Virus record (IMG/VR): IMGVR_UViG_3300005098_000017
Coordinates: 64,001 to 128,000 of that record
DNA from: a virus
Direction: 5' to 3' (one strand)
Length of the DNA: 64,000 nucleotides
Both the position numbers and the translations under genes were made by a program. Shown piece after piece: positions 2,642 to 58,939 of the stretch; the stretch's first letter is position 1, and the number at the start of each line of letters is the position of its first letter. The notes under the pieces are model-generated. The model was not told the DNA's origin and did no database searches. It saw only the letters and a program-made list of their open reading frames with translations.

Positions 2642-3331
2642 ATGAAACGAATACAACACATACTGTTATTAATAATAGTATTAATAATTATCGCTATAGG
2701 ACATCCCTTCCGTCCATTTTATGTCTTCTTCCAAGAGGGCTATAATGACACAGCATATGTGGACACTACAGATGCATGCATCCCTTGTTCAACATCATAT
2801 AATGTAACGATCTGCACAACAGCTGTCATATCATCGCTACCTATTGACACAACAGACGATACACTATGGCATGGTTACTTATTAAAGCTGTGGATAAAAG
2901 ACACCTCAGGATACACAAGCGATACATTTTATGTGAATGATACATGCTTCAGAACATTGTATCAAGTAGTACCTTGCAATATAGCACCTACATGTTCACT
3001 GGTATGGGGATACCATTTCTGGGTCATAAATCTAGATTGCATCAATATACAATATGGCATCTATGTAGGCGATGGTGATAGCGTATGTGTTTACATCGGG
3101 AAAGATATGCAACATGGACAAAAATGCGTAGCGATAAATAGTAGCACACCAGTACATCAACTAAGAGTGATAGCCGGAGATACAACACCCGTTTACATAA
3201 GTGAATTCCCTGTCATCCCATATCCAGCTTATTCGGATACGTACTGGTATGACATACGTGGAAGAAGAACACTACCGTATAGAAGTGGCGTTTATCTACA
3301 TAGAAGACGGGTTATCGTAATAATAAAATAA
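2642..3331 (+). CDS. Secreted Cys-rich protein with a T9SS/Por-type C-terminal sorting-like tail (paralog A)
   Basis: Signal peptide MKRIQHILLLIIVLIIIAIG; C-terminus WYDIRGRR...SGVYLHRRRVIVIIK. Confidence 0.75.
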   Translation: MKRIQHILLLIIVLIIIAIGHPFRPFYVFFQEGYNDTAYVDTTDACIPCSTSYNVTICTTAVISSLPIDTTDDTLWHGYLLKLWIKDTSGYTSDTFYVNDTCFRTLYQVVPCNIAPTCSLVWGYHFWVINLDCINIQYGIYVGDGDSVCVYIGKDMQHGQKCVAINSSTPVHQLRVIAGDTTPVYISEFPVIPYPAYSDTYWYDIRGRRTLPYRSGVYLHRRRVIVIIK

Positions 3332-4033
3332 TCATTTGAGGTGCACCTTCACCTTACCATCTTCTATATAAACAGTAGGTGGGGTCCCTCGAAGCCGGCG
3401 TCCTCTAAGATCAAATCGCCCTTTTAGGTAGGGAAGCCGCGGCTTCTTCTTATCATCCTCTATAATAAGACTACTTGTATCGGGCAGAACAATCCTCATA
3501 ATTTGATAAAGTGATAGATTATCATATGCAATGCACTTGCGTCCCCAAATGCTGCCTTTCGTTATATAGACACATAATGAATCACCACTTGCTAAACTAG
3601 GATATGCACTTCTGCCTATATCAATGATCCAAAGGTGATAACCCCAAACAGTACTGCATGTTGGAGCAAGATGATCTATGCAAGGCTGCACCCTCCACAA
3701 AGGTATAGATGCTGATGGACATGAATGTATGTCACAGCTATCCCAAATGGTATCCGCAGAACTATCATAGATAAAAAACTTGAGAGAGAACCCATACCAT
3801 ACATCATCAGTACTATCCGTATCAGTACCCATTGACGATATTACTTGTAGTGTACATAGATTGCGGTTGAAAGAAGCCGCGCACTTTGAACAGATGCCCA
3901 TCGTATCAACATAAGCTGTATCATTATATCCCAACTGGAATAGAACAAAGAACCACCGAGGTGGCGGAGGTGGGTCGGCAGCAACCAATGATATCCCGAT
4001 CGCTAATAGTATAATAATACTAATCTTCTTCAT
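3332..4033 (-). CDS. Secreted Cys-rich protein with a T9SS/Por-type C-terminal sorting-like tail (paralog B)
   Basis: Signal peptide ending LVAA; shares GYNDTAYVDT, APTCSxVWGYHxW and GDSxCVYI with paralog A; C-terminus RFDLRGRR...VYIEDGKVKVHLK. Confidence 0.75.
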   Translation of the reverse strand: MKKISIIILLAIGISLVAADPPPPPRWFFVLFQLGYNDTAYVDTMGICSKCAASFNRNLCTLQVISSMGTDTDSTDDVWYGFSLKFFIYDSSADTIWDSCDIHSCPSASIPLWRVQPCIDHLAPTCSTVWGYHLWIIDIGRSAYPSLASGDSLCVYITKGSIWGRKCIAYDNLSLYQIMRIVLPDTSSLIIEDDKKKPRLPYLKGRFDLRGRRLRGTPPTVYIEDGKVKVHLK

Positions 4034-34219: not shown

Positions 34220-34723
34220 GTGTATTGGGTAAAGCTATCAGGGCGCGCACCTGTAGCTACGATAACTTGTGGGCATCGTGTTGCACAGGTATCAGTCCGG
34301 TGCCCTATTTTTCCTCTTAAGGATTTTACGCCTCATTGTATAGCTCAGTTTCAAAGACATGTTGATGTATATATCATAGAGGAGAATTTTCCTATTGATG
34401 AGGACCGGAAGGTAGAAATTTTCTCTACGCTTATGGATGGTGATATTGATATCGAACCTTCTGAGGAGGAATTCGTTATGTGGTTAATCTCCAATGGGTT
34501 CCAGCCTAAGGGTACCTATCATAAGGTTGTAGTGAAGGAAACGGAGTCAGAAGAGGAAAATATTGTGTCTCCTGAAGTAAGTGAAGAGGATGGTAAGGTT
34601 GATGATGTTTCTGTACAGGAGTCTGATACAGTTAATGAGGTAACTAGTGATGAAAAACCTAAATCGGTAGGGAAGAAGAAAGGTGCGCGTCGAGGTAGAA
34701 CAAACAAGCGTAAACGTAAATGA
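34220..34723 (+). CDS. Hypothetical head-associated protein with acidic/basic tail
   Basis: GTG at 34220 after AGGAGG, in frame with track ORF 34181..34723. Confidence 0.65.
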   Translation: MYWVKLSGRAPVATITCGHRVAQVSVRCPIFPLKDFTPHCIAQFQRHVDVYIIEENFPIDEDRKVEIFSTLMDGDIDIEPSEEEFVMWLISNGFQPKGTYHKVVVKETESEEENIVSPEVSEEDGKVDDVSVQESDTVNEVTSDEKPKSVGKKKGARRGRTNKRKRK

Positions 34724-35933
34724 TACGATTATAATTTCATGTGATCAGACACCTGATAGTAGTACTGTAGATGAAACGACCATCCGTCTTTATTATAAAG
34801 ATTATCCCCTGCCGCCTTCCTATGATTGCAGGGTCAATGGAAATAATATTGAGGTAATACCAGTTGAACCGTGGTTGGCTGGTTATACAATAATTTTAAC
34901 AGTAGTTGGTGAACAGTATGGTGTTAAATCTGTTGAAGGGGAGTCACTTGAGGAACCGGTTTATACATTTACAATAGCTGTATTACCTGCAGAGGAACCC
35001 GGCACGGCGCCTTCATATGAGCATGCATTAATTGTAACGGCGACAATACCAGAGGATTATTATACAAATTATACGGATAATCATATTAAATTTTTCTTCA
35101 ATGTTCCTATTGATCCGAGTATTGAGGATGCATATGAGGAACATGTTTTTATACATGTTAAGCCCGTAATAGTCCTGCCTCCTAATAGTCATCTGCCGGT
35201 GCCGCCTCAAGGCTATCTTGCGCCCGAGGCTTATTCTGTTGATGTTGATGGTACTACAATGACTGTAACAATAGGTGTGCCTATCTATAATGCAGAAATA
35301 AATGTCAAGATTGTTGATATCCATGCATTGAATATAAGTTATGTTCCTATATCAAGTTATGAAATAGTATTTACATATAGATATTCACCTCTTCTTTATA
35401 CACCTGATTATTTTGAGGTTGATCTACCAGATGATGTTATCTATCGGTACATTTTAAGGGCGGAGGCAATAGCTGACACACTTTATCCGGGTGTTCTTGA
35501 TTGGAATGACCCTGAGTGGTGTGTTGTTATGTTTGTTTATTATATGACGCAGCGGCTTATTTTAGAGCGTCTTTATGGCATATTAGCAATAATGGGTGGT
35601 TCATTTAGCAAGAGATTGGGCGATTTGCAGATATCGTATAACATTAGGCCTGATAATGATTTGAATAAGTTGCTAGGTCCTCTTTCTGCATTGGTGCGTA
35701 ATAGGTGTGCTAAGGTAGCTTTACATGGTGTCATACCGGGCCGTCTTGTCTATCCAATACCATATCACCGTCCTGATGTAGCATGGCGCCGCTTCCCTAT
35801 ATTAAAGGATTATTTTATTGAGGAGCCTACGGTATTTATGGGTGATCGGGCATGGGATTATGGTGTGTTTTTCAGGAAGCATATGGATCAATTGGAGACA
35901 GGTAGAGAGGTGCTTGGTGAAGAGAATGTATGA
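34683..35933 (+). CDS. Ig-like domain(s) plus putative head-tail adaptor
   Basis: N-terminal Ig-like beta pattern; C-terminal SKRLGDLQISY typical of adaptors. Confidence 0.6.
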   Translation: MRVEVEQTSVNVNDTIIISCDQTPDSSTVDETTIRLYYKDYPLPPSYDCRVNGNNIEVIPVEPWLAGYTIILTVVGEQYGVKSVEGESLEEPVYTFTIAVLPAEEPGTAPSYEHALIVTATIPEDYYTNYTDNHIKFFFNVPIDPSIEDAYEEHVFIHVKPVIVLPPNSHLPVPPQGYLAPEAYSVDVDGTTMTVTIGVPIYNAEINVKIVDIHALNISYVPISSYEIVFTYRYSPLLYTPDYFEVDLPDDVIYRYILRAEAIADTLYPGVLDWNDPEWCVVMFVYYMTQRLILERLYGILAIMGGSFSKRLGDLQISYNIRPDNDLNKLLGPLSALVRNRCAKVALHGVIPGRLVYPIPYHRPDVAWRRFPILKDYFIEEPTVFMGDRAWDYGVFFRKHMDQLETGREVLGEENV

Positions 35934-37175: not shown

Positions 37176-40100
37176 ATGCCAAGGGATATAAGAGTAAGAT
37201 TCAGGCCTACGTTGGTTACCCCTCAGATAAGAGGGGGGTTTCCCACGCTGGGTGTTTTGATTATTGGTACGGCTACTGATGGCCCGACAAATGAGCCGGT
37301 TATTGTAAGGGGTCTTGAGGAAGCACAGGAGATTTTTGGCAACTTAGGTGAGGGGACTCTGCTGGAGGGTTATCATGAATTTATCACAGGTGCTTCACGT
37401 GGTGCAGACCTGCGTACTGTTGTGGGGCTTATGAGACTGGATTTCGGTGAGTATGCTAGTGTGGAGCTACCAGAGCCATCGACGGGTACAGGGCTAAGCG
37501 AGCCAATGGGTGCAACGGCGCTTACTATTAGAGCAAGATATAAAGGTGAAATATACAATATGTTTACCATATCATATAAGGCAGTAGCTGGCGGGTTTGC
37601 TGTATCTATAGTTGTGCCAGCTGAGAAAGATCCATCAGGAAAAAGCCAAGAATATGTGCTTCTTTGTGACCCATCAGGTAGTAATACAGAGCTTATAAAT
37701 AATCTTACGGAGCTGGCTAATGCTATTAATCATCATCCAGTGCTGGCACGTTGGTTGTATGCGGAGGTAAACCTTCTTGATAGTAGATATTCAACGTATA
37801 TATCCAATGGATTTTATTCGGGAGCTGGTGAGTCATTTAATGCGTGGGGTGTAGGATATAATGATACTGATAAGGTTATAGATTTTGTGAGCCGATTTAG
37901 TGGTTCGCCTAGTAGTGATGTTTTGGATTCAGGTGGTGACGATACATTAGGACAGTATCATCCTTATACGATATTTGGGACGACTCCTGTCAATGTTAGG
38001 GCCACATCACTTGACAACATACAAAATATAAGGAATTTTGGAAAACTGGCATTGTATGATGTGTCTGTAGATGCGAATACAAAGATTGCCAATTTAGGTG
38101 TCTATCCTCTTATACAGACCAAAGCCGGTGCAACAAAATTTTATCCCATAAGCGCATATAATGATTATGATGATGATGGTATGTATATTGATGTACCTAA
38201 TTATCTAAGGAATTGGGACACCCCCGCGACAGCTAAATATCTTATACCGGGTAGATTTCCTGTATCGGAGGCTGTCTTCTATATGGATGTGATTCTGAAC
38301 CCCAGCGGGGCTTCAGGGGATGTGAATTATGTCGAAACTAATATGTTCCTGCCTGTGGATGTTTATGGTGATGTATCACTAGCTAATCTTATTAATGCAT
38401 CAAGTGTTAGTGATACAAGACGGTTTAGTTATAAATGGATAATACAGACAGAAGCCGGGACGGTTTATGATAGTGGGGCATCTACTTATACAGGTTGGAT
38501 GTTGCCTCTTTTCCATTCTCCAATGTCATCTATCGGTGGATTAATATTATTCCATCAGAAAGATGGATCGCCGGTTGATGAGTTGGATACGATATTTGGT
38601 TCATGGAAATATCTCTATTTAGGTGTGCCTTCACAGGTAGGTGGATCAGCGCCTGATTGGTATTCTACGACACCGGATGCAGCTACATTAAAACTTATTG
38701 ATACAGGGGATAGTGAGAAGGTCCATATAGGTTTGGGTCCTGCATCAGCATTTTTCACGAAGACTGATGTAACGAGCCATTATGGTAATGAGACATCACC
38801 GGATGAGAATTATACTAATGCCATAAATACGGATGTAAAAGATTTTGATGGTTCATATTCAGGTAATGAGTTCAAGCTCTATTATTCAACGGATGGTTCA
38901 TCTTGGCATGAGATCCCTTTGTATTATGAATATGATGGCAAATATTGTTCTGGCCTTACATTAGAGTGGACATTTAATGGTCAAACAGATCTGGCCGCCT
39001 TAACTGATTTGAATACATTCAAGATCAAATTCTTTGATGGGATCACATGGTCCTCGGAGGATGATCCCGAGATCAAAGAAATCCAGTCGAAGTATCCATT
39101 CCTTGAGGTTGCGAAGGATACCAGCACTGGTGAATATTATCTCGTAATAGCTGCTGGAACAAGAATAAGACTAACGGGTTATACACCGAAGGTTATGTTG
39201 AAGTACCTGCCTTCGAGAGCGGCGCTTAATGACTGGTATGAGTATACTGTCTATCAGGATAGGATTGAGTTTGGTACACCTTATCCATACACAATTAAAT
39301 TCAAGGTTCATTATCTCAAGGAGTTTGTTGAGAATGTTGATTACATATATGATTCCGCACAAGGTACATTCCAGATGCTTGACTCTGAATTGATACCACC
39401 TGATAAGCTAACATTGCTGTATATGGATTATCAGTTTGAGCCTGAGTGGTTTGATACATCTCGTATCTATACATTATCAGGTGGTTCATCTGGGTTTGAG
39501 AGGGCGCGGCCTCTTGAATACTATGCAAAGTTCCGTACGGCTTTGCAAGCTATAAGCACAGATGATAGATTTGACATTATAGTGCCGAAGGGTGCTTATA
39601 TAGACACAGTTGATGAGGTATATGATGCATCTATATCTTCGACGACATATGTTAATGTAGGCTATGTGGATCTCTTTGATGAGTTTACGCAGAAACGTGC
39701 TGATGATGGCAACCCAACGATTGTTATCCTAGCAGCGGAACCTTATAAACCTGAGACAGCTATTGTAGGTTATACCCGTGAGGGTATAGCTAATTGGGTA
39801 ACAAGGATGACCGATACTACATCAATTGATCCCCGTTCGCCGGCGGGCTTAATTGCCTCTGTGACTGACAATCCAATGATGTGTGTTACTGTTGTACCGA
39901 TAGCACTTATAGCACCGGGCGGCGCTTATTACATATCGGATGGAGCTGCATTCCTTGCGGGTCTTGCTGCAAGATTCCATTATGTGCCCCGCACTGCAGC
40001 TAATGAGAGTCTTTACAACCTTGCACTTCCTAATGGTGTCAGACCTGCGTTTAGATTATCGGAGTCGCAGGTTGATGCATTGCTCAACATGCGTTACATA

Positions 40101-40460
40101 GTGTTCCACATGGGTCAGGATGGAGCGCCGCGGCTTATGAGAGATACAACACTTGCCCAGCCATTTAGTTCATTGAGTGCGCTAACCCACCTAGCTGTGT
40201 TGCTGCGTATTAAGCAGGGATTTATAAGAAGGCTGCGGCCTCATATCGGTAAGATCGTTAACGCTCAGACGAAGATGGAGGTTGATGCAGCTATAACATC
40301 CGAGTTGGCACTATGGCAGAAGAGTGGGATTATACAGCAGGCTATAGTTGATATTGATTGGGCAAGTCTTGAAGGTACATTGGGAGTATTACCAGTGCAT
40401 ATTACGATTGTGAGATCACCCATTCTGAAGGGTGTTGAAATAGATATTGTTGTGCGGTAA
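37176..40460 (+). CDS. Contractile tail sheath protein (1094 aa, large central insertions)
   Basis: IIGTATDGPTNEPV...EAQEIFG N-terminus; TIRARYKG; LSGG; sheath-like C-terminal domain. Confidence 0.9.
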   Translation: MPRDIRVRFRPTLVTPQIRGGFPTLGVLIIGTATDGPTNEPVIVRGLEEAQEIFGNLGEGTLLEGYHEFITGASRGADLRTVVGLMRLDFGEYASVELPEPSTGTGLSEPMGATALTIRARYKGEIYNMFTISYKAVAGGFAVSIVVPAEKDPSGKSQEYVLLCDPSGSNTELINNLTELANAINHHPVLARWLYAEVNLLDSRYSTYISNGFYSGAGESFNAWGVGYNDTDKVIDFVSRFSGSPSSDVLDSGGDDTLGQYHPYTIFGTTPVNVRATSLDNIQNIRNFGKLALYDVSVDANTKIANLGVYPLIQTKAGATKFYPISAYNDYDDDGMYIDVPNYLRNWDTPATAKYLIPGRFPVSEAVFYMDVILNPSGASGDVNYVETNMFLPVDVYGDVSLANLINASSVSDTRRFSYKWIIQTEAGTVYDSGASTYTGWMLPLFHSPMSSIGGLILFHQKDGSPVDELDTIFGSWKYLYLGVPSQVGGSAPDWYSTTPDAATLKLIDTGDSEKVHIGLGPASAFFTKTDVTSHYGNETSPDENYTNAINTDVKDFDGSYSGNEFKLYYSTDGSSWHEIPLYYEYDGKYCSGLTLEWTFNGQTDLAALTDLNTFKIKFFDGITWSSEDDPEIKEIQSKYPFLEVAKDTSTGEYYLVIAAGTRIRLTGYTPKVMLKYLPSRAALNDWYEYTVYQDRIEFGTPYPYTIKFKVHYLKEFVENVDYIYDSAQGTFQMLDSELIPPDKLTLLYMDYQFEPEWFDTSRIYTLSGGSSGFERARPLEYYAKFRTALQAISTDDRFDIIVPKGAYIDTVDEVYDASISSTTYVNVGYVDLFDEFTQKRADDGNPTIVILAAEPYKPETAIVGYTREGIANWVTRMTDTTSIDPRSPAGLIASVTDNPMMCVTVVPIALIAPGGAYYISDGAAFLAGLAARFHYVPRTAANESLYNLALPNGVRPAFRLSESQVDALLNMRYIVFHMGQDGAPRLMRDTTLAQPFSSLSALTHLAVLLRIKQGFIRRLRPHIGKIVNAQTKMEVDAAITSELALWQKSGIIQQAIVDIDWASLEGTLGVLPVHITIVRSPILKGVEIDIVVR

Positions 40461-40485
40461 GATTGGTGGAAGGAATATCAAGTAG

Positions 40486-40517
40486 AAGGCCCTCCGTATG
40501 AAGCGGGGGGCCTTTTT
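40486..40517 (+). terminator. Rho-independent terminator after the sheath gene
   Basis: AAGGCCCTCCG-TATGAAG-CGGGGGGCCTT followed by a T run. Confidence 0.85.
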
Positions 40518-40538
40518 GTTTTGGTATGTTGTCTTGAG

Positions 40539-40772
40539 ATGAAAGATGTGAAGATATACATTGATGATGGTATTTTATATGTGGAATTTCATGAGTTCTA
40601 CGATCGGGCCGATATATTGATTTATGATGTGAAGGGCCGGCTTATTCATGAAGGGACTGCGGCCGGCTTAAGCGTCTATACATATGACATGTCTCGTTAT
40701 GCAAGTGGTCCTTACATTGTTGTTATTTTGGTTAGTGGTAGAAAATATAGTAAGGTAGTCACATTGCATTAG
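40539..40772 (+). CDS. Stand-alone T9SS type-A C-terminal sorting-domain-like protein
   Basis: ILIYDVKGRLI...YDMSRYASGPYIVVI...YSKVVTL matches the I-Y-D/N-x-x-G...L-x-x-G-x-Y...K pattern; no signal peptide. Confidence 0.75.
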   Translation: MKDVKIYIDDGILYVEFHEFYDRADILIYDVKGRLIHEGTAAGLSVYTYDMSRYASGPYIVVILVSGRKYSKVVTLH

Positions 40773-40787
40773 TATTAGGAGGTTATT

Positions 40788-41645
40788 ATGGGACTGACAT
40801 TAAGTTCTAATAAATATGCTAAGACATTTAATTCCTTTTCAGGTGCTGATATATTCATAATCTTTGAAAATGCTACTGTTGGGACAATAACCCAGCTATC
40901 TTGGAATATAACGAGGGAGAAGGCCCCTCTTTATGTTCTTGGCCATGTTGATGCTGTGGGTACATCACGTGGTAAGAGAAGCATTGCTGGTTCACTTACA
41001 GGTCTAATCTTTGACCGTTGGACACTCTTTGATCTGGCATGGGGATCTGACATTACAGGTGAAGGTGGCCGTACCGGTGAGTATGCTGAGTATGCAAGGA
41101 AGACGGGTGATATCTTGGTGCCGGGTGATTTGATGTTTGTGGATTATGCTGATATATATGGCACTGATGTAGCACCGGGTACTAGAGCATGGCCTGTAGG
41201 TGGTGGCGGGTCTGCTGAGGAAGCATGGAAGAAGATGCTTGGTTGGGAGCCTAGTAGGGTTGTATATGCTGACCAAATGCTACCATGTGATGTAACGATT
41301 GTTGGTATTAATGAGGCAGGTAATTTTATGGTTTCGAGGATTTTTGGTATAGATTTGCTATCAACAGGTGCTGGTATATCAATTGATGATGTAACTATGG
41401 AGGAGCAGTATACATGGTTTGCTATGTCAATGCTACCATTTTTACCGAGGTATACAGGCGGTGAAGGTACTGGCTTAGAACTTTATAATCTCCTTAAGGA
41501 GTATTGGGGACTACCGGGTTCAGAGATGGCGTCGTTAAAGTCAGCTATGGAGACAATAGCTAGAGCAAGTCGTTCTGGTTTAGGTACTGGTAGCACTACT
41601 GGTGGAACAGGTACTGGAGGAACTGGTACTGGTGGAGGAGGTTGA
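40788..41645 (+). CDS. Putative tail tube protein with a Gly/Thr-rich tail
   Basis: SFSGADI...TREKAPLYVLG...RGKRSIAGSL; follows the sheath gene. Confidence 0.7.
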   Translation: MGLTLSSNKYAKTFNSFSGADIFIIFENATVGTITQLSWNITREKAPLYVLGHVDAVGTSRGKRSIAGSLTGLIFDRWTLFDLAWGSDITGEGGRTGEYAEYARKTGDILVPGDLMFVDYADIYGTDVAPGTRAWPVGGGGSAEEAWKKMLGWEPSRVVYADQMLPCDVTIVGINEAGNFMVSRIFGIDLLSTGAGISIDDVTMEEQYTWFAMSMLPFLPRYTGGEGTGLELYNLLKEYWGLPGSEMASLKSAMETIARASRSGLGTGSTTGGTGTGGTGTGGGG

Positions 41646-42820
41646 TGAGATTAGAGGATGCTGAAAGCAAGCAGTATGTATTTAGTTTTAGTGGTGCTGA
41701 TTATATACCATTTGCTTTTGTGGGGGGGCGGCTTCGTGCGCTCCCCCTTGTTATGACGATAACGGCTTCTTTCGTTGCTGACCAAGCGCCGGCCTTAACC
41801 CTTGGTAGTAAGGTACCATTAACGATACGACCTGGTCATGTTACTGTCGCGGGCTCCATTATAGGAGCTGTCAGTGATGTACACCCTCTCTTTCCATTGA
41901 CATCATTGTTTGTTAGGGATGTGCGCTTCGGTACTGATGTTGCGCTAAGGACATATGAATTACCCCTTTTTGATATTATTATTGTTGGTATTAATGAGGT
42001 AGGTAGGACAACTGTTGCGAAGGTTTATGGTGCGCGTATTCAGCAGGGAGGATATACATATTCAATCCAGGATCTTTACACAGAGACAACATTTCAATAT
42101 AGGGCGTTGGATATGGATGAACCTCAGGTAGCACCTGTTATGGAAGGTGAGATGATGCATTATATCAATCCAGCCATATTTTTTGACCGGCTTAATAGGA
42201 TTCCTATCTTAGCGAAGAATAAAGCGGAGGTTGGTGCTGTATTGGGTGTTATATTATCATTGCGTGCGAAACTTATTGACATCTATGACAAGATTGCTAA
42301 TGCAAAGAGCATAGAAGAGCGTGAGCATTGGTTGCAGGAAGCTAAAAATGTGCAGGAAGAAATCCGCAGGTATGAGGATGCGCTTAATACGACATTGAGG
42401 TTATATTCGAGGACTGTTATATCAGGTAATCAATTTGCGGATGCTGTATTTGGGGATTTGGTTTGGCCGCGGGATTTGAAGTATGTTGAAGTGGAGAAAT
42501 CTTATGTATATCCGCAGCGTTATTATGCATCTGTTGGGGATACACAGAAGATTGGTACCTATCAGTGGCGTTCTGAACATGAGACTGATATGTGGAATAT
42601 ATATACCTATTTCCAACAGATTTATATAATGTTACGAGATTCGTATCGAAAAGGAGATGTACCTATGCATGATTTATATAGGAGGTGCTTAGATTTCCGT
42701 GCGAAGTTAATAAGTGCTATGTCAACCTTTAAGGAGGATAAATATTTACATCCATATTATGGTGAAGCTTTATTGAAGCGTTATGATGAGTTAATTAAGC
42801 AGATAAGAGAGAGACTATGA
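41642..42820 (+). CDS. Tube-fold paralog 2 (tube initiator / hub-like) with helical extension
   Basis: SFSGAD...LTLG...TVAGSI...LPLFDIIIVGINEVG...SIQDLYTE aligns with the preceding ORF. Confidence 0.7.
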   Translation: MMRLEDAESKQYVFSFSGADYIPFAFVGGRLRALPLVMTITASFVADQAPALTLGSKVPLTIRPGHVTVAGSIIGAVSDVHPLFPLTSLFVRDVRFGTDVALRTYELPLFDIIIVGINEVGRTTVAKVYGARIQQGGYTYSIQDLYTETTFQYRALDMDEPQVAPVMEGEMMHYINPAIFFDRLNRIPILAKNKAEVGAVLGVILSLRAKLIDIYDKIANAKSIEEREHWLQEAKNVQEEIRRYEDALNTTLRLYSRTVISGNQFADAVFGDLVWPRDLKYVEVEKSYVYPQRYYASVGDTQKIGTYQWRSEHETDMWNIYTYFQQIYIMLRDSYRKGDVPMHDLYRRCLDFRAKLISAMSTFKEDKYLHPYYGEALLKRYDELIKQIRERL

Positions 42821-44823
42821 TAGTCCGCCGTTTTGTAAACACTAACATATATAAGAATCTACAGGAGAAGCAGGGCATAACAGACAATGATGGTACTGTT
42901 TCCTATAAGCCGGCTGAGGAAACGACTTTTGATATACCTTATTTAGAGGATTTTTATACCCCTGCGCTTATTACGCTTTACTTTGATGGCATAAGGATAG
43001 CTGAGGCTGTTTTTGTGGAATATGTTTATAATGATCAGAAGATACCTGTTTATGGTTATGGGGATCGTTATGTTCGTGCATTTGAGGAGGGGCATCATTT
43101 AATAAGCGGGCGCATGGGGTTTTTATTTAAGGAGACGGCTTATTTATCGAGTGTTATTGATTTGGTATCAGGAAGCCGGCTTATTACCACACCCGGAGGT
43201 GAAAGTGCTGTATATGCATTGCTGCAGAGAGTACTGAGCGATCCTGAGGTTAATGAAAAAGTTGAATATATGAGGCAGATTTTGACATCGGTATTTGGGT
43301 TGGAGCCCTTCAAGGTTGGGCAGCTTAATGCTAATCAGATGATTAATTTATTAAAGATTTATAAGTCTGTTATTTATATGACTGTGAATCCCCGCTATGG
43401 CGCCACAGGTCCTTTGGTGACAGAGGCAATGAACAGTAGCGAAGCGCTTAGTTCTCCCTCATCGCCACTGGTATGGAAGATCGGCTCGCCTCATGTTATA
43501 TCGGCAATGTTAGATATGGAGGATGTCTTTGGTGAGGTGGCTATTGAAGGATTGTGGGAATCAGTGGAAGATGCATTATGGAGTAAGGAGGTGCCGGGCT
43601 TAGACATTGCACCCATCGTAGAGCATGATTTAGGTTATACAGGTTATGGGTATGTAATATCTGACAAAACATTTGATGTTTTTATAAGGTATGGTGCTGA
43701 TGGATCAAGCATTACAGACCATACAGTTGAGGTTATCAATGATGTCCATCTTGTATCAAGTGGCAAGAGCATCAATGTTGGCTCGCCTGATCTTGTTGTT
43801 GAGGTTTTGGAGTTCATAGCGCGCACTAACAATCGGCGGCTTAATATCTACCAGCATAAACAGGTATCGGAGACGGATGAGCTTATTCCACCGCAAATGG
43901 ATAGTGGTATGAGCGAGGGGAAGAAGTATTTTAGTTATAAGAAAGAAGAAATGGAGAATGCGAGGGTCGGGGATCAGGAAAAGGAGAAATATAGAAAGCT
44001 TTCAGAAGAGGAATTGAAAGAAATGCGGGCTACCTTGTGCGGTCGTTGTATTGATGAAAGATGTAGTATCAAGGTGGGTAGTTTTGGGTTTAACACGTTG
44101 AAAGATAGCTTGTTTGAACATACAGGTATAACATTAGATATTAGCTATCGAGGTGAGACTCATTTTGGTCCTTTGGTCATATATGAAAAACCGACATTTA
44201 CTTTGAGTGTGGAGAAGACAGTTGATAATTTGTTGGCTAATATTGCAAAATTATCGCAGGCTGCTACAAGGGGATCATTGGGTGGATTTGTAGTAGAGAA
44301 AGGTTTGTTGGAAGTTGTGTGGGGGCAGCATCCTAAACTTGAGCAGCAGGGCCCTCATAAAGTAAGGACAGTTGGTTGTCCTTTTGCGTTTGCGGAGGCG
44401 GTTGTAGAAAATTTGAAGCCATCATTTTGTTTACGCTACTTGAATGCTCTTTTAAGGTATAGTGCCCCACCGAGTGCTATTATTGATGATTTGCGTGCTA
44501 TTTTAGATTATGTTACTTCGCATTCAGGTATCGCAAGTTTGAAGTTTCCTATAGCTATTGCTATGGCTGGTCATGGTGATGAGTTTAATAAAAACATTTC
44601 GCAATATATGAAAGGGGTTCATGTGCCACAATTTGATGTATATGATGGATTAAAGATAAGTGTAAAAAAAGCACTACTACAAATAAATGAAGGGGAAAAT
44701 ACTCCTTATAAATTGGCTGTTTTGCCGTTGTACATAATTATGATTGATTTAGCTGACCGTGAATCGGTATTGAATTTTAAAAATAAGCTTGACACATGGA
44801 CATTCCATCATTATTATTACTGA
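42817..44823 (+). CDS. Tube-fold paralog 3 / baseplate-hub-like protein
   Basis: QKIPVYGYG...GHHLISGRM...TFDVFI...EFIAR. Confidence 0.6.
   Translation: MIVRRFVNTNIYKNLQEKQGITDNDGTVSYKPAEETTFDIPYLEDFYTPALITLYFDGIRIAEAVFVEYVYNDQKIPVYGYGDRYVRAFEEGHHLISGRMGFLFKETAYLSSVIDLVSGSRLITTPGGESAVYALLQRVLSDPEVNEKVEYMRQILTSVFGLEPFKVGQLNANQMINLLKIYKSVIYMTVNPRYGATGPLVTEAMNSSEALSSPSSPLVWKIGSPHVISAMLDMEDVFGEVAIEGLWESVEDALWSKEVPGLDIAPIVEHDLGYTGYGYVISDKTFDVFIRYGADGSSITDHTVEVINDVHLVSSGKSINVGSPDLVVEVLEFIARTNNRRLNIYQHKQVSETDELIPPQMDSGMSEGKKYFSYKKEEMENARVGDQEKEKYRKLSEEELKEMRATLCGRCIDERCSIKVGSFGFNTLKDSLFEHTGITLDISYRGETHFGPLVIYEKPTFTLSVEKTVDNLLANIAKLSQAATRGSLGGFVVEKGLLEVVWGQHPKLEQQGPHKVRTVGCPFAFAEAVVENLKPSFCLRYLNALLRYSAPPSAIIDDLRAILDYVTSHSGIASLKFPIAIAMAGHGDEFNKNISQYMKGVHVPQFDVYDGLKISVKKALLQINEGENTPYKLAVLPLYIIMIDLADRESVLNFKNKLDTWTFHHYYY
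44789..44817 (+). promoter_or_regulatory. Near-consensus sigma70 promoter
   Basis: TTGACA (44789-44794)-17 bp-TATTAT (44812-44817). Confidence 0.6.
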
Positions 44824-44850
44824 TGTTAAATCTTAACAAAGGGGTGGTAT

Positions 44851-45528
44851 ATGGATCCCAAAGAGTATAAACAGCAGCATGGTGTTGATATTTTTGCGGT
44901 TGGTTGTAATGTTCTGAAAAATACTTATAAGGCATATTTTCCTATTATGTCTGTTGCTGATCTTACGACTGATGTTATGTATAATGACCCTGCGCGGGTT
45001 CATCTATTAAATGTTGTCCGTAACCTTGTTGAAAAGATAAGTTTAGGAACGATGACTGATGATGATTTGGTTGCTGTCATGGGTGGTTGCATTCATCTCG
45101 AAAAGAATATGCAACCTATTGATCCGATGTCTGTAGAGAATGCTATAGCTAAGCTCTTAGCTGAACGGTGGATTACTGCGATGGGCTTCTTTGATACACC
45201 GCGGGTTTATGTTGCTGAGGTGGATGGGCAAACATGCGATGTTGTTGAAACTGTTTATGCAGGTAAGGTTTACAAAATTTATCTAAAGCCTATATCAGGT
45301 GACAATGATCCTCGTATTGAGCATGTGTTGAAGGTCTTGGGTAGAGAGTATACGATTGATCAGACATATGATGTATTTAGAAGCTCGGTTGTGAAGGTTG
45401 AAGCCGCGCCCTTTGGGCAGCTATCGTTTGAGGATGTTGAACTTAATGATAAAGTGCTGTTTGCAAGTGCTGTTATGGCGTGGATTGAGAATACAGGTAG
45501 CATTGAATATGATTACGAAATTATATAA
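44851..45528 (+). CDS. Hypothetical protein (tail assembly chaperone position)
   Basis: 225-aa acidic ORF. Confidence 0.6.
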   Translation: MDPKEYKQQHGVDIFAVGCNVLKNTYKAYFPIMSVADLTTDVMYNDPARVHLLNVVRNLVEKISLGTMTDDDLVAVMGGCIHLEKNMQPIDPMSVENAIAKLLAERWITAMGFFDTPRVYVAEVDGQTCDVVETVYAGKVYKIYLKPISGDNDPRIEHVLKVLGREYTIDQTYDVFRSSVVKVEAAPFGQLSFEDVELNDKVLFASAVMAWIENTGSIEYDYEII

Positions 45529-45905
45529 TGAATCTTATACGTATTAAGTATGAGGATACCACCTATGAATTTAATTATCCCACCCTATTTGATTACTACT
45601 TGTTTATTGATGGTCAAAAAGTTCGGGTATTTGATCGCCTCGCATTAAAGGATTATAGTATTCCATCAATTAAGAAGGTGCGCATTATAACCATCCTCTT
45701 TCGTCACTTCCCCGCCTTTGCTACAGAGGATGAGGTATTTTCCAATATACCGGATGCTGGTGGTTTAATTTATTTAATACGGGTGTTTGGATATAAACCT
45801 CACGAATTATTGCAGTTAAATCCTTATGAGCTTGATTTTGCGGTAAGGTTGGCGGAATATATAAACAATCCAAAACTAGAGAATGACAGTAGTCCGCAGG
45901 AATAA
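45528..45905 (+). CDS. Hypothetical protein (tail assembly chaperone-like)
   Basis: C-terminal FGYKPHELLQLN resembles the second TAC segment; precedes the giant ORF. Confidence 0.55.
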   Translation: MNLIRIKYEDTTYEFNYPTLFDYYLFIDGQKVRVFDRLALKDYSIPSIKKVRIITILFRHFPAFATEDEVFSNIPDAGGLIYLIRVFGYKPHELLQLNPYELDFAVRLAEYINNPKLENDSSPQE

Positions 45906-48900
45906 GCCCTTTCTTTTCCAGAGTGATTTAGCACGCATACGCACAGATGAGACATTGCGCAGCCGTTATGGGTGGGGTCGTACACTTTTGCGTTTTGGAG
46001 TGGCGATGGCTTCCTTTGCTGTTTTGTCTTATGGTGCGCGTTCCTTATCGCGTGCATGGCGTGCATTGGCCACATCTGGAGCATTATCACGGAAGTTTGT
46101 TGAAGGCGTTAAGGTAGTAAAGAAGTTAGGGCTTGAGCAGGGTAACTTACTTGATGTAATATTATCAGTATCTAGGCGTGCGCGTCGAGTTGCTTATAAA
46201 TATGTTAAGTGGTCGCAAGATTATAGGGATGCGTCGCGGCTTCTGCATTTTGGTAAGGCATTAAGGAAAATATGGAGCGGTGGTAAAGCATCATTAAAGG
46301 GTTTTAGGAAGGCGCGTGAGGCTTATCGACGGGTTGGATTACGAGGTGCATTGTTTGGTGCCTTTTTGCGTGGTGCAGAAAGAGGTGTTGGATTTGCGAT
46401 TTTATCTTCGGCTGCTGATGCATTAACACATTCATTTATAACACCTGCGGATAGAGAGAAGACAAGAAAGTATGGTCCTGTTGCTCGTGTGAAGCGTTTT
46501 TTCACTGATGCTGTCCTATTTAGTGGATTACAAGGACTTTGGGGTGTATCAAAAGTTGCCTTTCCTACCTATATACATAGGTATAGCCCACAAATACAGC
46601 GTTTTCTTACCCGCATTGGAGCGCCTACTTATGTGGCTAAGTTTTATGGATGGAGGCGTCGCTTCTATGATTATCTAATTCGTGCTATAGAATATAAGCA
46701 GAAGTTTACTCAGAAATTGCAAGGTGCTAATATATGGCAGCACATAAAGCAGCAGATGAAGGAGCATCCCGGGTTAGGTGCTATTGCAACCTATTTGCGG
46801 GAGCAGATAAGGGAAGCTCATCTACATGCTAAGAAATCGTTTAGGAGGCCGGGTGGATTTCCACCAAGGAGTGGTTATGATACAGTTATAACAATGATGA
46901 ATTATGCGAAAGAGGTTAATGTTAAGGATCCTAAGTTTGCAGCGGAGATTGCAGCTCAAGCTGTTGGACGTTATAAAGGTGTGAGTAAGTGGCGGCGGCT
47001 TCTTAATATCGAACGTGAAAGGTTGACCAAGAAGCAGGCTGTTGCTTTCAGGGAGATGCTTGAGAAAATGGGGTTTAGCAAGTCATGGATCGAGACATTA
47101 AAGGGGGAGGAACGCAAGTTTTATGAGAATCTGTATTACCGTGTGATGAGGGGACCATTGTTCCATGGTCCCGGATGGTTTGAAGTAGCCGGGCAAAAGT
47201 TTTCACAGTATGAGACGCGTTATTTTGTAAAAAGAATTCTCCAGAATCTATATGCTGGTCGATGGAGGGGGGTTACACGCATTTTGGCTTCTGCGGCGGG
47301 CTTAGACCTCTATGCCAACCGCAGACCTGTATTTATCTTCCATCCTACCATGGATATTCCGATGAGCGTTCCTATACCGACTGATGAGGGTGTTCGTATG
47401 CTACGCTTGGTAACCGAACGTGGTAATGATCGGGTTCGTCATGGGATTGTATTCTTACAGAATAAATTGTACAGATTATCGCCAACGGAGGAGGGTGGTG
47501 AATACTTTGTGGATAGGGTTATAGAGAATGTTAAATTATATGAGAGCCCGGCTTATAACATATTAAAGAGGGAGTTAACGCAGTATTATATCAAGCAGAG
47601 GCGGCGCACGGATGAGATAGGTTTGCGTCCACCAGGTGAATATGTTAGGGATATAATCAGGAAATTATCGCGGGGTGTTGATAAGGCTAGCTTAGAGGAA
47701 TTGGTTAATGTATATAAGTCAACCCGTTCGACGGCCCATATTATCTTTGGTAAATTGTTATCAAAGAAGGAGGTCCGTGAGGTTGCATCGCAGATCTTGG
47801 AGCAATTAGGCGCGAGTAGAGCGCAAAGGATCTTGCAGATGGATGAGGCATCATTAATCAGGGAACTTGAGAAGGTTATAGAAAAGCCTGCACAAGTAAC
47901 AGAGCGGCTTCGTAACAAGTTTATCTATCTTATAAACGCATCACGGAGTAGGATGAGGACTATGAAGGATCTTTTGAATCAGGAGTTTATAGGTTCTGGA
48001 TATGCAGAAGCACGGGCTAGGCATGTTATTGAGTCGTTCTTAATTGAGCAGCATTTGACACCAGAAATAAGGGCGAAATTCTTTAGCAGGCTTGCTGAGG
48101 AGCAGTTGATCGGGAAGTGGATAAGGAAGCCGGCTTATACACATTTCTTCAAAGCATTAGCAGAGCTAGCACCTGTTGAGATGGATGCAGAAGCTCTAAG
48201 GTCTACTATAAAGGGCGCGCTTAATGATATTGTAGTCGGTTGGAAAAAATTACCTACAGTTGATCCATTTAGGCCGATATCTGCCTTATTCCAGTATGGT
48301 GGATTGGGTATCCACAGGTTATTTGAACCTACCATAGAAGGTATACGGGTAATGGGTACTACAGTACCATTTACTGTTGTTAGAGAAGGTATGAGTCCAT
48401 TTAAACGGTATACGGTAACAAGTTTATTGTTTTCCCATCACTTACGGCGCATATGGGGATTTATGGATTATGTAAGCAAAGCTCCTCGCAAGTTTCCTAT
48501 TATCAGGCATTTATTAAGGCGATTAGACCCTAGATTGGCTGATACGGCGCATATCTTTCCATTTGAGACTAATACTACTGGTTGGACGGCTTCAGATATG
48601 ATAAAGAATTTATGGAAGCCGGCGGCTACATTATTGGCATTAGGTGTAGGATATAAGGCTGTTGATACATTCTTTGATGAAAGTGGTTTATTTGAAGGGA
48701 CTGCATTAGGAGAGGGGTTGACACCTGCTATACTGGATGCATATGCATTAGGTCGTCTTTCTTTGGCAAGAGTATTGGATATTGCAGGTGTAACTGATGC
48801 AGCGCGGTATTTAGAGGGATTAATGCCGGGGTCTATGACATGGTTACCAGGTGCACTATATGGCGTATGGAAGTTTGCACCTGCGGGGCCGGCGGCTTCC

Positions 48901-51714
48901 GCTATGGGTGCATTAATAATGGGTGCTGTTAATAAAATGTTAGCGCCATTTTTGCCTGATTTAACAAAGAGTTACGATCAGCTGAAGAGGATATATAGAG
49001 GTGAGGAGTATGTGCCTGTAAGGAGAGCAAGGTATTGGCCTTTATCTTTAACCCCTTGGGAGGGTTATGATATTGAATATTGGCGGCCTTCTCTATGGTT
49101 CATTGTAAGACAGCAGGCAAAATATACTCCTGATATAAGTGGTAGCAAGATACAATCCTTATTACAGGGTGATTGGTTATTTGGATTTAATCCATTGCGT
49201 GCATTTGATCCATATGCTAAAGAGAGGCAACATTATTTCTCTAGGCCGGCGCCTCTCACACAGTTGCCATTTTGGGATGTGCCAGTTATAGGGCCGTTTT
49301 TAGCTTTAACTGTTGGGCAGGTATTGAAACCACAGCAGATGATGCATACAGCCTTTTTGAAGGAGATGTATCCCGGTGAGTATGGTGTGCCGAAGGGTGA
49401 AGTTGTCACACCGGAGGATTTATCTAATCCTGATCAATATGTATCAGCTATGCAATCCAATCAAGCTGTTGCAATGTTAATGAATAGATATGCGGGGCGG
49501 GCTTACAGGCATGTCACAGGAGATATGCTTAATAGAGGTATAACAGAAACTCTGTATAGATCGATGGAGATGGCGGGCTTAAGAGGTTACCTAACATCGT
49601 TATTATTAGGAACACAGACACCGCTTAATTTCAGTAGGTACCTAGAAATGTATGGTGAGAACGAAGGGTTTTTATCTGAATACTGGAACATGGAACTTAA
49701 TGATGTAGCTGGTGGGTTATCTGAGATGATAAGAAGATTCCGGCCTGACAAGCGGATAAATACAGTTAACCCTATCCCCAACCTTATGGCACAATTTTTA
49801 CCCGAAGGAGAGTATGGTGGTAGCGATTTTCTACATGGTGATCCTTATACTAAAATTCCTATGGGTTTCATAAGATTGCCGGGGACTGGATATGAGGCAA
49901 CACATAATGTAATGCATACATTTCCTGCATCGTTAAGAATGTTGGGTAAGACAGTAACAGAGATAAGGGACATTATGGCCGGGTGGGAGGATATTATTGA
50001 GGAGAGAACGGAGCGGGAGCTAAATAGATTTTATGATGCTAAGAAGATTGTGCAGGGATTGCTTGAGATATCAGGACAGAATGTTGAGATGGATGTGCAG
50101 ATTTACGATCCATATAACAACATTGTTGGTACCGTTGATGCAGTTGTGAGGAGAGGGCGATTTAGGCAACCTATTATTATACGTCCTGTTAGTGAGGAGG
50201 AATTTAGGGAGCTTGTTGCCCCGAAGGAGGAGCATGCGAGTCAGGTAAATTTTGCTATGAAGTTTTTTGGTGCGAAGACGGGTAAGTTGATTTATGTGAA
50301 TGTAAGATCGCCTGAACAGATTAAGACATATACCATCTTTTTTGATCCATCAAGGTTAAGAGAGGATATAAGTGCATTAAAGAGGGCGAGGGAACAGGCT
50401 GGTGAGTTGTTAAGGGCAGGAGCTGTTTTTGATTATGGTCGTAGTTATAGCTGGTTTGATAGATATAGAATTTTAGCTGATGTTGCTCCTTTATCTGATC
50501 AATATAAGCAGGCGCGTGCTATTATATTGAAGCAATTGCAACAGGGATTTTTGCCACCTGAGTTATGGGATGAGGTGCATGAGATTGAGCGAAGGCGGCG
50601 GCTTCAGCTTTTAAAATATCCTATGTATGTGCGTCGTTTTACTGGTGAAAATGTTGTTGAAACGGTGCAGAAGCTTTTGCATCCGCCCAGGCTTTCCGGC
50701 AGGGAGTTATCGCTATCTTTGAATCCATATTTAAGGTCGCCTGATGAATACAGTTTACCAGAAAGGATCGTAGGTAGTATCTGGGAGACATTTACACATT
50801 TACCAACACCTTATAATAGGAAATTCTTTTTCCAGTACTCACCGTCAGAGATTTATAAGTATTTCCATTTATATGATCGGGAGTATAAAGCATGGACGCG
50901 GCCTATTGAGGATTGGGTTAAGCCGCAGGTTAGGACGATGCTTGCTTCACAAGGCGTAATGGAGGGCGTGGCTTCATGGGCTACAGCAGGTTATGCTGTT
51001 GGTAGGTTATACGGCGGGCTTATAGGTGCAGTGGCTGGATCCATATATGGGTTGATACCTAAGCCGCCGATGATACCGGAGGATGTGGAGAAGGCGCGCG
51101 AGGCTTATTCGTATTATGATAAATTGAAATATGCACGTAACATGCAGTTTTATGTTATGACAGGTAATAGAATATATGAGGAGCGTGCTGAGCGGACCTT
51201 ATTGGGTGCGAAGAACTTACGTGATTATGTAAGAGCATTACCACGTTTTGAGCGCCCATTTACTGTAGCGTTTATGAACATAACTGATGAGAGTGAAAGA
51301 GAAAGGATAAGGCAGATTATATCACCTGAGGCGCGTCGTGCCTTGGATGCAGCATGGGCGAGACGTGAATTGCGGTATAGTGTTGAAGAAGGTGGTTATG
51401 AAGAGGTACCGAGAACACCAGCTAATTGGGCTGGTTGGATTTTTGCGATACCTGATGAGGATATTTATGTGAAGGAGCTTGAGCAGCGGGGTGTTGATCC
51501 TCTAGATTTTGGTTATGGTTATCATGGTCAGGCAGCTGCTGTACGCCGTCTATCTGAAGATTTTGCTATACCTGATCAGACGGTAGATGTAGTCAATATT
51601 ATGGATGTACAGGAAACAATAGTCAGGTCATTGCAGGCGCAGGGTATTAGTGCTTCTGTATCCATCATGGGATTTGATAATAGTAGAAGAGTTGATGTCG
51701 TTATTTATAAATAA
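45883..51714 (+). CDS. Giant virion protein (1943 aa), tape-measure position, with TM segments and a degenerate PD-(D/E)xK domain
   Basis: Basic helical N-terminus, hydrophobic Gly/Ala segments, IVGTVDAVV...PIIIR...HASQV...GKLIYV. Confidence 0.65.
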   Translation: MTVVRRNKPFLFQSDLARIRTDETLRSRYGWGRTLLRFGVAMASFAVLSYGARSLSRAWRALATSGALSRKFVEGVKVVKKLGLEQGNLLDVILSVSRRARRVAYKYVKWSQDYRDASRLLHFGKALRKIWSGGKASLKGFRKAREAYRRVGLRGALFGAFLRGAERGVGFAILSSAADALTHSFITPADREKTRKYGPVARVKRFFTDAVLFSGLQGLWGVSKVAFPTYIHRYSPQIQRFLTRIGAPTYVAKFYGWRRRFYDYLIRAIEYKQKFTQKLQGANIWQHIKQQMKEHPGLGAIATYLREQIREAHLHAKKSFRRPGGFPPRSGYDTVITMMNYAKEVNVKDPKFAAEIAAQAVGRYKGVSKWRRLLNIERERLTKKQAVAFREMLEKMGFSKSWIETLKGEERKFYENLYYRVMRGPLFHGPGWFEVAGQKFSQYETRYFVKRILQNLYAGRWRGVTRILASAAGLDLYANRRPVFIFHPTMDIPMSVPIPTDEGVRMLRLVTERGNDRVRHGIVFLQNKLYRLSPTEEGGEYFVDRVIENVKLYESPAYNILKRELTQYYIKQRRRTDEIGLRPPGEYVRDIIRKLSRGVDKASLEELVNVYKSTRSTAHIIFGKLLSKKEVREVASQILEQLGASRAQRILQMDEASLIRELEKVIEKPAQVTERLRNKFIYLINASRSRMRTMKDLLNQEFIGSGYAEARARHVIESFLIEQHLTPEIRAKFFSRLAEEQLIGKWIRKPAYTHFFKALAELAPVEMDAEALRSTIKGALNDIVVGWKKLPTVDPFRPISALFQYGGLGIHRLFEPTIEGIRVMGTTVPFTVVREGMSPFKRYTVTSLLFSHHLRRIWGFMDYVSKAPRKFPIIRHLLRRLDPRLADTAHIFPFETNTTGWTASDMIKNLWKPAATLLALGVGYKAVDTFFDESGLFEGTALGEGLTPAILDAYALGRLSLARVLDIAGVTDAARYLEGLMPGSMTWLPGALYGVWKFAPAGPAASAMGALIMGAVNKMLAPFLPDLTKSYDQLKRIYRGEEYVPVRRARYWPLSLTPWEGYDIEYWRPSLWFIVRQQAKYTPDISGSKIQSLLQGDWLFGFNPLRAFDPYAKERQHYFSRPAPLTQLPFWDVPVIGPFLALTVGQVLKPQQMMHTAFLKEMYPGEYGVPKGEVVTPEDLSNPDQYVSAMQSNQAVAMLMNRYAGRAYRHVTGDMLNRGITETLYRSMEMAGLRGYLTSLLLGTQTPLNFSRYLEMYGENEGFLSEYWNMELNDVAGGLSEMIRRFRPDKRINTVNPIPNLMAQFLPEGEYGGSDFLHGDPYTKIPMGFIRLPGTGYEATHNVMHTFPASLRMLGKTVTEIRDIMAGWEDIIEERTERELNRFYDAKKIVQGLLEISGQNVEMDVQIYDPYNNIVGTVDAVVRRGRFRQPIIIRPVSEEEFRELVAPKEEHASQVNFAMKFFGAKTGKLIYVNVRSPEQIKTYTIFFDPSRLREDISALKRAREQAGELLRAGAVFDYGRSYSWFDRYRILADVAPLSDQYKQARAIILKQLQQGFLPPELWDEVHEIERRRRLQLLKYPMYVRRFTGENVVETVQKLLHPPRLSGRELSLSLNPYLRSPDEYSLPERIVGSIWETFTHLPTPYNRKFFFQYSPSEIYKYFHLYDREYKAWTRPIEDWVKPQVRTMLASQGVMEGVASWATAGYAVGRLYGGLIGAVAGSIYGLIPKPPMIPEDVEKAREAYSYYDKLKYARNMQFYVMTGNRIYEERAERTLLGAKNLRDYVRALPRFERPFTVAFMNITDESERERIRQIISPEARRALDAAWARRELRYSVEEGGYEEVPRTPANWAGWIFAIPDEDIYVKELEQRGVDPLDFGYGYHGQAAAVRRLSEDFAIPDQTVDVVNIMDVQETIVRSLQAQGISASVSIMGFDNSRRVDVVIYK

Positions 51715-58775: not shown

Positions 58776-58939
58776 AAATTATAGTTAGAGTATCACCAAA
58801 TGCAGATATTGTTCGTGTTGAAGCGGCAATACGTAATGCTTTGATGGCGTATGATTTAGATGTACGGTCGATACAAGTGGTAACAACAGCTTTCGGACAG
58901 GAGGAGTATGCCAGAGGACCCGAAAAAACCGAGGCTTGA
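58772..58939 (+). CDS. 55-aa hypothetical protein
   Basis: Hand translation MKIIVRVSPNADIVRVEAAIRNAL...; ATGA overlap with the upstream stop. Confidence 0.6.
   Translation: MKIIVRVSPNADIVRVEAAIRNALMAYDLDVRSIQVVTTAFGQEEYARGPEKTEA

Follow-up and report, generated by a model that had tools for sequence, protein, structure and literature searches.

The window analysed here, bases 64001-128000 (64,000 nucleotides) of a 147,433-bp IMG/VR virus record that is estimated to be ~84% complete, carries a gene for a stand-alone, DUF3244/T9SS-CTD-like β-sandwich between its tail sheath and tail tube genes (40539..40772, plus strand). The gene runs from an ATG at 40539 to a TAG at 40770-40772, spans 234 nt and encodes 77 amino acids; it was defined by the open reading frame (ORF), profile, model and homology evidence described below and is demonstrably a real protein-coding gene. 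Phage proteins that carry T9SS C-terminal sorting domains (CTDs) are already known (Bellas 2020), and so are stand-alone CTD-like cellular proteins (DUF3244). New is the combination: a copy that lacks both a signal peptide and a cargo and that has been fixed and selected at the sheath-tube junction of a contractile-tail module. We regard it as a curiosity, albeit a well-documented one, and not as a new mechanism.

The structure predicted by AlphaFold2 from the single sequence (pLDDT 91.4, pTM 0.79) consists of seven strands that take up residues 4-76, and the 77-aa ORF therefore corresponds to one complete domain and nothing else. The charged N-terminus (MKDVKIYIDDG) is folded as strand 1, and hence a signal peptide is not present. 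An earlier note on this DNA, made from the letters alone, had described the ORF as free of both a signal peptide and a cargo; this holds, with the first strand starting at residue 4 and the domain filling the whole ORF.

In Foldseek comparisons, the model matched the DUF3244 structure 3sd2 with a TM score of 0.89 and the CTD of NucA (8glk_D) with a TM score of 0.78. The best structural match is BT_3571 (3sd2), with Z 13.1, an rmsd of 1.5 Å and 26% identity over 77 aligned residues, and two additional DUF3244 proteins, BT_1867 (4g5a) and BVU_0276 (3d33), reach Z 11.2 each. The T9SS CTDs of RemA, NucA, RemZ, mirolase and RgpB superpose with TM scores of 0.69-0.79 and Z values of 9.9-10.7 (8gl6_D, 10.7; 8glk_D, 10.1; 8qb1, 9.9; 5ag8, 9.9), which is a small margin over generic Ig-like domains at Z ~9. 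The superposed CTDs of RemA and NucA were solved inside the SprA-PorV translocon. At the profile level, the Pfam family DUF3244 (PF11589) scores 31.3 bits against a cutoff of 25 (E 2.1e-7), with residues 3-66 aligned to positions 21-86 of the 96 profile positions, and the same profile recovered the ORF with 29.9 bits in a six-frame scan of the genome. The scores for Por_Secre_tail (PF18962; 23.9 bits, cutoff 27) and TIGR04183 (18.5 bits, cutoff 23) stay below their cutoffs. The protein thus lies within the DUF3244/type-A CTD superfamily and is formally a DUF3244 member by curated thresholds. The earlier note had seen only a type-A CTD-like β-sandwich and had proposed to check for a profile and structure match to Por_Secre_tail/FlgD_ig; the complete, single seven-strand sandwich and the CTD-group fold bear this out, but the family name and the profile match do not follow from the curated thresholds.

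The last two strands contain the sequences ASGPYIVV, in which GxYIV is present and the leading P is absent, and RKYSK (RxxxK/KxxK). They resemble the PxGxYVV and KxxxK motifs, which are the most conserved CTD signals according to a review. Both GxY[IV]V and RKYSK are unchanged in every phage lineage that carries the ORF and in the CTD of the nearest non-phage relative, P0006, which is described below. The PNP-type N-terminal motif, which we take to belong to the T9SS CTD consensus, is missing from the 77-aa protein.

Close relatives of the ORF occur in contigs L001-L007 and L009, so that, with the window, nine contigs from three lineages carry it. Its slot is identical in every carrier, between a gene for a 1094-aa sheath protein and a gene for a 281-285-aa tube protein, and all nine copies are intact at 234 nt and free of indels. 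The encoded proteins are 85-90% identical, with a dN/dS of 0.15-0.19 at a dS of 0.28-0.55, whereas the sheath gene, the tube gene and the upstream gene show a dN/dS of 0.02-0.05 and protein identities of 95-99% (Nei-Gojobori in both cases). In an example pair, 19.3 synonymous changes at 49 sites compare with 14.7 non-synonymous changes at 182 sites (pS ~0.39, pN ~0.08), and the substitutions are mostly conservative (I/V, D/E). Non-synonymous evolution of the ORF is ~5x faster than that of its neighbours. The gene is thus under purifying selection that is clearly more relaxed than in the structural core, and the look at presence and dN/dS in related phages that the earlier note had proposed gives an intact rather than a decayed gene.

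These data also bear on the idea that the ORF is a functionless hitch-hiker, i.e., a recently captured fragment that persists harmlessly in an untranslated leader. Its absence from all more distant relatives, its weak translation signals and the relaxed constraint in comparison to its neighbours would fit such a fragment. Nevertheless, nine of nine copies have stayed at full length despite the synonymous divergence given above, which reaches 1.2 in the sheath gene of the same lineages, and the excess of pS over pN and the predominance of conservative substitutions also speak against it. We therefore consider a functionless passenger improbable.

The neighbouring genes form a tail module that is well conserved. 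The tail sheath gene (37176..40460, plus strand) encodes a protein of 1094 aa with a large variable middle (approximately residues 80-760); it was identified by matches to PHROG sheath families (2e-8 and 6.4e-8), weak matches to the Pfam families Gp18_domIII_N and Phage_sheath_1, its gp139 position and the alignment with relatives. The tail tube gene (40788..41645, plus strand) encodes 285 aa with 31-35% identity to gp140 of 0305phi8-36 and to the tail tube protein of KLEB27-3. The AlphaFold2 model of this tube protein is of low confidence (pLDDT 61), and its top Foldseek matches are all tail-tube or Hcp proteins. Among its 92 homologs, the cultured relatives are Bacillus phage 0305phi8-36, KLEB27-3, Moorella MTATph1 and Acinetobacter ME3. 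A second tube paralog of 392 aa (41642..42820, plus strand) has PHROG 34314 and 9206 in common with the tube gene and occupies the position of gp141, the 'tail tube paralog', and a third tube-related structural protein of 668 aa (42817..44823, plus strand) matches PHROG 9206 at 1.2e-5 and sits at the position of gp142, a virion structural protein. These three successive paralogs (40788-44823) are far longer than ordinary tube proteins and keep the order of gp140-142 in 0305phi8-36; the first has a Gly/Thr-rich end (GTGSTTGGTGTGGTGTGGGG).

Altogether, positions 37176-51714 of the window are collinear with 0305phi8-36, comprising the sheath (gp139), the tube (gp140), its paralog (gp141), gp142, two chaperone-like genes (gp143/144) and the giant gp145. 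Most of the tail-module proteins of 0305phi8-36, including sheath and tube, have been identified in virions by mass spectrometry. Downstream of the tail chaperone-like genes, three giant ORFs of 1943, 2353 and more than 1697 aa occupy positions 45883-63998; the first is found at the gp145 position, and only the last has a Pfam match, a sub-threshold Peptidase_M23. Upstream of the sheath gene, a 416-aa protein (34683-35933) has an N-terminal Big_5 Ig-like domain, with 23.8 bits against a cutoff of 23.6 and no single stretch that passes alone. This protein is present at the same position in L011, L013 and L016 and is annotated as an Ig-like structural protein in KLEB27-3.

The likeness to 0305phi8-36 concerns both the gene order and the tube protein (31% identity, E 5e-25). 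In contrast to the window, 0305phi8-36, which has Firmicutes hosts, contains no gene between sheath and tube, and the two genes are separated by a gap of 59 nt. The corresponding gap measures 61 nt in KLEB27-3 and 142, 165, 13, 57, 19 and 22 nt in the contigs L011 to L016, respectively. In these eight more distant relatives, the sheath gene is directly followed by the tube gene, which confirms that the ORF breaks the usual sheath-tube adjacency, as had been noticed earlier. A search for remnants of the ORF in the eight relatives found none; in the intergenic regions of L011 and L012, tblastn and gap-tolerant DNA alignments were no better than shuffles (64 versus 54 +/- 6.6 and 40 versus 46 +/- 5.7), and a deletion that left a remnant in these relatives was rejected for this reason. 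As eight distant relatives have neither the ORF nor a remnant, the most parsimonious reading would be a gain in the ORF-bearing clade within an otherwise rigid tail module.

The ORF is placed tightly between expression signals. The sheath gene, which stops at 40460, is followed by an intrinsic terminator (40484..40520, plus strand) that was recognized by a consensus scan and RNA folding and that consists of a 14-bp GC-rich stem and a T-tract. The stem (40484-40516) has a predicted folding energy of -26.2 kcal/mol (z -5.2), and none of 200 shuffled sequences was equally stable; the lineages L002 and L005 have this hairpin as well, albeit with other loops. The terminator stem is followed after 22 nt by the ORF, in agreement with the earlier description of its location, and the ORF is followed after 15 nt by the first tube gene at 40788. 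Direct reading of the sequence shows an AGGAGG Shine-Dalgarno motif of this tube gene at 40777..40782 (plus strand), which begins 4 nt beyond the stop codon of the ORF, and GGAGG sites are likewise present upstream of the tube gene in L011 and L012. Different from the tube gene and from ~42% of the crude gene calls, the ORF is not preceded by a GGAGG-type ribosome-binding site. Because the strong Shine-Dalgarno motif typical of this genome is absent, the 77-aa protein may be synthesized at a low level. Another possible start is a TTG at 40521, which would add six residues (83 aa). With a GC content of 0.38 compared to 0.40 for the phage and a GC3 of 0.37, the composition of the ORF is phage-like.

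Between the terminator and the ORF, the sequence TTGGTATGTT (40521..40530, plus strand) resembles an extended -10 element (TGnTATGTT) and, judged by its position, is a putative promoter of the tube operon. This motif is identical across four aligned contigs of the ORF-bearing clade, and a similar one occurs just past the sheath terminator in the ORF-less contigs L011 (TTGGTATATT) and L012 (TTTGGTATAAT). The order in L011 and L012 is like that in the window, i.e., sheath terminator, TTGGTAT(A/G)(T/A)T motif and tube Shine-Dalgarno, and in the clade of the window the ORF sits between the motif and the Shine-Dalgarno. Within the window, the motif shows no enrichment, with 2 matches versus 1.5 expected. 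In L011 (5859-6000) and L012 (3014-3178), both without the ORF, the terminator and the TTGGTATAWT-like motif are followed by a leader of ~70-80 nt before the tube Shine-Dalgarno; this layout suggests a conserved internal promoter that would separate sheath from tube expression. The ORF could then be the first cistron of the tube operon, and, as its ATG lies only 8 nt past the putative -10 element, its mRNA may be leaderless.

The proximity to the sheath and tube genes also raises the question of whether the domain is a separate protein at all, since it could be a read-through C-terminal extension on a fraction of the sheath subunits or could be fused to the tube protein. The ORF of the window lies in the frame of the sheath gene, from whose TAA it is separated by 26 sense codons without any stop, and also in that of the tube gene. 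Yet, relative to the sheath gene it is in the +1 frame in L002 and L005, with an intervening stop in L005, and a strong terminator separates it from the sheath gene and two TAG stops from the tube gene. A fused product is therefore regarded as extremely improbable. Read-through or frameshift fusion to the sheath was rejected, as the shared frame is restricted to the window, and recoding of TAG was rejected because TAG is an ordinary stop in this genome (13 of 97 long ORFs), tRNA or suppressor genes are lacking and the frame is not kept in L005. The stop-free 26 codons in the sheath frame (40461-40538) contain the terminator hairpin. This stop-free link is not conserved in the relatives and is thus probably coincidental.

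Homologues of the 77-aa protein are rare. Among 5.8 billion clustered proteins, only two relatives of the same size were found, with 90% and 84% identity, and an exhaustive HMMER search of 1.84 billion representative sequences added essentially one true relative, P0006. This protein is encoded on a 917-bp contig, and its last 77 residues form a Por_Secre_tail domain (33.9 bits, cutoff 27) at the C-terminus of a longer protein. Over all 77 residues, this domain shares 40% identity with the phage ORF, and both have a terminal YSK..LH in common. P0003 and P0005 were rejected as relatives; they are repeat proteins that match the YAxGPY stretch only and were treated as compositional or short-motif matches. 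No longer, fused forms of the domain were found in the search, no homologue was detected among 50,697 phage records, a search for DNA similarity to phage records likewise gave nothing, and bacterial species genomes and the PHROG families did not contain a match. Neighbours in the ESM-Atlas, which serve as a lead only, are clusters of ~80 aa that are labelled CTD or DUF3244 and are mostly from Bacteroidota.

As the nearest non-phage relative, P0006, carries a true C-terminal CTD with 40% identity, the gene appears to be host-derived: these comparisons point to an ancestor of the clade that captured the sorting-domain fold of a T9SS-type surface protein, minus its signal peptide and cargo. Of the earlier suggestion of a captured host fragment, the origin is supported by P0006 and by the absence of the gene from the eight distant relatives; that the fragment would be non-functional is contradicted by the nine intact copies and their dN/dS values. 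Whole-genome scans of the 147 kb with PF18962, PF11589 and a custom HMM, together with Pfam searches of 18 window proteins and hhalign, found no other CTD domain. The ORF had initially been counted as the third CTD-like sequence in the window, but the two supposed others, at 2642-3331 (plus strand) and 3332-4033 (minus strand), have neither a Pfam CTD match at E<=0.1 nor profile similarity to the ORF. They are tail-to-tail, Cys-rich secreted paralogs; their N-termini are hydrophobic, their short C-termini are basic (YDIRGRR.., FDLRGRR..), and they do not match any Pfam family.

For the role of the 77-aa protein, we tentatively favour an accessory or adhesion module that is expressed late and associates with the virion. 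The ORF has been inserted into the 5' leader of the tail-tube operon, in a contractile-tailed phage of the 0305phi8-36 type, and lies between the terminator with the putative promoter and the ribosome-binding site of the tube gene. The protein would be made late in the cytoplasm, together with the tube proteins, would bind non-covalently to the assembling tail or to the virion surface as a small accessory Ig-like module and would leave the cell on the particle. Exposed on the virion, the β-sandwich may help the particle to adhere weakly to the host envelope, an auxiliary function that is known from Ig-like decorations elsewhere. It would be dispensable for tail assembly, because relatives build the same tail without the ORF.

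This virion-accessory reading is preferred on account of the operon, the fold class, the decoration-like patchy distribution and the lack of a route to the periplasm; virion association would be the most plausible class, given the position of the gene and its placement in a late operon. It is in line with this reading that the lineage already possesses a structural protein with an Ig-like fold (Big_5), encoded a few genes further upstream, and that folds of the CTD type are present in further phage proteins, among them, as a weak match, a structural protein of a Cellulophaga phage. Ig-like domains are common on virion surfaces, reportedly also in the case of T4 Hoc. On the other hand, Ig-like decorations of phages as a rule form part of a structural protein or have an anchor, while the 77-aa protein is a bare sandwich without an obvious docking element and its gene lacks a strong Shine-Dalgarno. 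Against a virion module also count the missing PHROG family and the missing homologue in the 50,697 phage records. The faster non-synonymous rate also fits a non-structural accessory or a conflict gene.

Such a non-structural protein could act in the cytoplasm, with no link to secretion, where it would bind a host or phage protein, for example, in anti-defence, in host takeover or as an assembly helper for sheath or tube, and the leader of the tube gene would merely be a permissive and highly expressed site. The protein has neither a signal peptide nor an anchor, it does not match a structural-protein family, its gain is clade-restricted and moron-like, and its higher dN/dS relative to the structural neighbours is common for conflict genes. 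Nonetheless, anti-defence genes are usually early genes and are not located inside a late tail operon, the fold and the nearest relatives are extracytoplasmic surface-protein domains, and eight relatives assemble their tails without such a factor. A cytoplasmic accessory role is judged unlikely.

The similarity to sorting domains suggests yet another possibility, raised in the earlier note as a decoy or as a cargo-mimicking virion decoration, in which the free CTD engages PorV, SprA or PorU-type machinery, either as a decoy that is released by lysis and that blocks secretion or masks receptors, or as a virion ligand that docks on the translocon. The nearest relative is a true sorting domain, the GxY[IV]V and [RK]xxxK-like motifs in the C-terminal strands are invariant across lineages, and the model superposes on the translocon-bound CTDs 8gl6_D and 8glk_D. 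In addition, phage-encoded cargo proteins with a CTD are known (Bellas 2020), and resistance of Flavobacterium to phages is reported to map to genes for gliding and the T9SS. These arguments are countered by the mechanism of T9SS, which recognizes CTDs only after Sec export (Lasica 2017). Without a Sec signal and a cargo, the 77-aa protein is not a T9SS substrate, and it could meet the T9SS only after lysis or from the virion. Further counter-arguments are the scores below the Por_Secre_tail and TIGR04183 cutoffs, with the better assignment to DUF3244, the fact that DUF3244 structures come from the porT-negative Bacteroides thetaiotaomicron, and the absence of a further CTD protein from the genome.

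The translation signals of the genome also count against such a mimic. Heavy use of Shine-Dalgarno motifs is atypical of classical Bacteroidota and their phages, yet 56 of 132 crude gene starts in the whole genome have a GGAGG within 20 nt upstream. No tRNA genes were found in the genome. The heavy Shine-Dalgarno use contrasts with the FCB-group type of the captured domain. Considering both sides, a T9SS mimic appears rather doubtful, and this applies even more to its most specific form, in which a tail-displayed, cargo-less CTD would serve as a key that docks on the extracellular CTD-binding face of PorV/SprA, or on CTD-processing surface proteins, for a reversible first hold, while copies released by lysis could instead jam the machine on neighbouring cells. 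This specific form is considered a long shot, but, if docking were true, it would be the first case of a virus that uses a secretion signal as a receptor-binding ligand.

Comparison to known systems puts the gene into perspective. Like the DUF3244 proteins BT_3571, BT_1867 and BVU_0276, it encodes a single stand-alone domain with nothing attached. The solved DUF3244 members, however, align from residue 41-54 of their precursors, which implies a leader of ~40 residues that we infer to be a signal peptide, whereas the phage protein is leaderless; moreover, they are small cellular proteins of Bacteroides and not products of a phage tail operon. The literature search found no published functional data on DUF3244. 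With the type-A CTDs of RemA, NucA, RgpB and mirolase, the phage domain shares the seven-strand sandwich, and its nearest cellular homologue is a true CTD; in contrast to them, it is not C-terminal to any protein and has neither cargo nor Sec signal.

Sorting domains of the T9SS type are also found in phages. The 'Cryophage' encodes T9SS cargo proteins (Bellas et al. 2020, PMC7468147), and BFVD contains 'C-terminal sorting domain' proteins from uncultured Caudovirales that match with TM scores of 0.71-0.79. Those proteins, however, are 240-636 aa long, represent enzymes or adhesin-like cargo with the CTD as their tail and are presumably exported through the system of the host, while the domain described here is bare, signal-less and placed inside a tail module; the literature search retrieved no report of a stand-alone CTD in phages. 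The Ig-like decorations of phages, such as T4 Hoc, the C-terminal domain of lambda gpV and SPP1 gp17.1*, are likewise small accessory β-sandwiches in a structural module that are dispensable for assembly and patchy among relatives. They differ in having a capsid- or tail-binding part, either fused or built in, and in belonging to the I-set, FN3 and Big_2 types, whereas the phage domain is bare, is of the CTD/DUF3244 type and would be virion-associated judging from the position of its gene.

Normally, a secretion tag has no meaning unless it comes with a cargo and an export signal, and yet selection has retained in this phage the fold of the tag alone, within the best-conserved part of the tail operon. 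As the DUF3244 proteins look like cellular 'tag-only' proteins, the fold may bind on its own, independent of secretion. Should the 77-aa protein engage the T9SS, CTD recognition would have a natural probe or inhibitor. The DUF3244 family, in any case, gains a second biological context. If the protein is on the virion, the surface modules of phages would extend to a fold that is specific to the cell surface of the FCB group (Fibrobacteres-Chlorobi-Bacteroidetes), and it would offer a way to approach the host range of a large lineage of uncultured phages.
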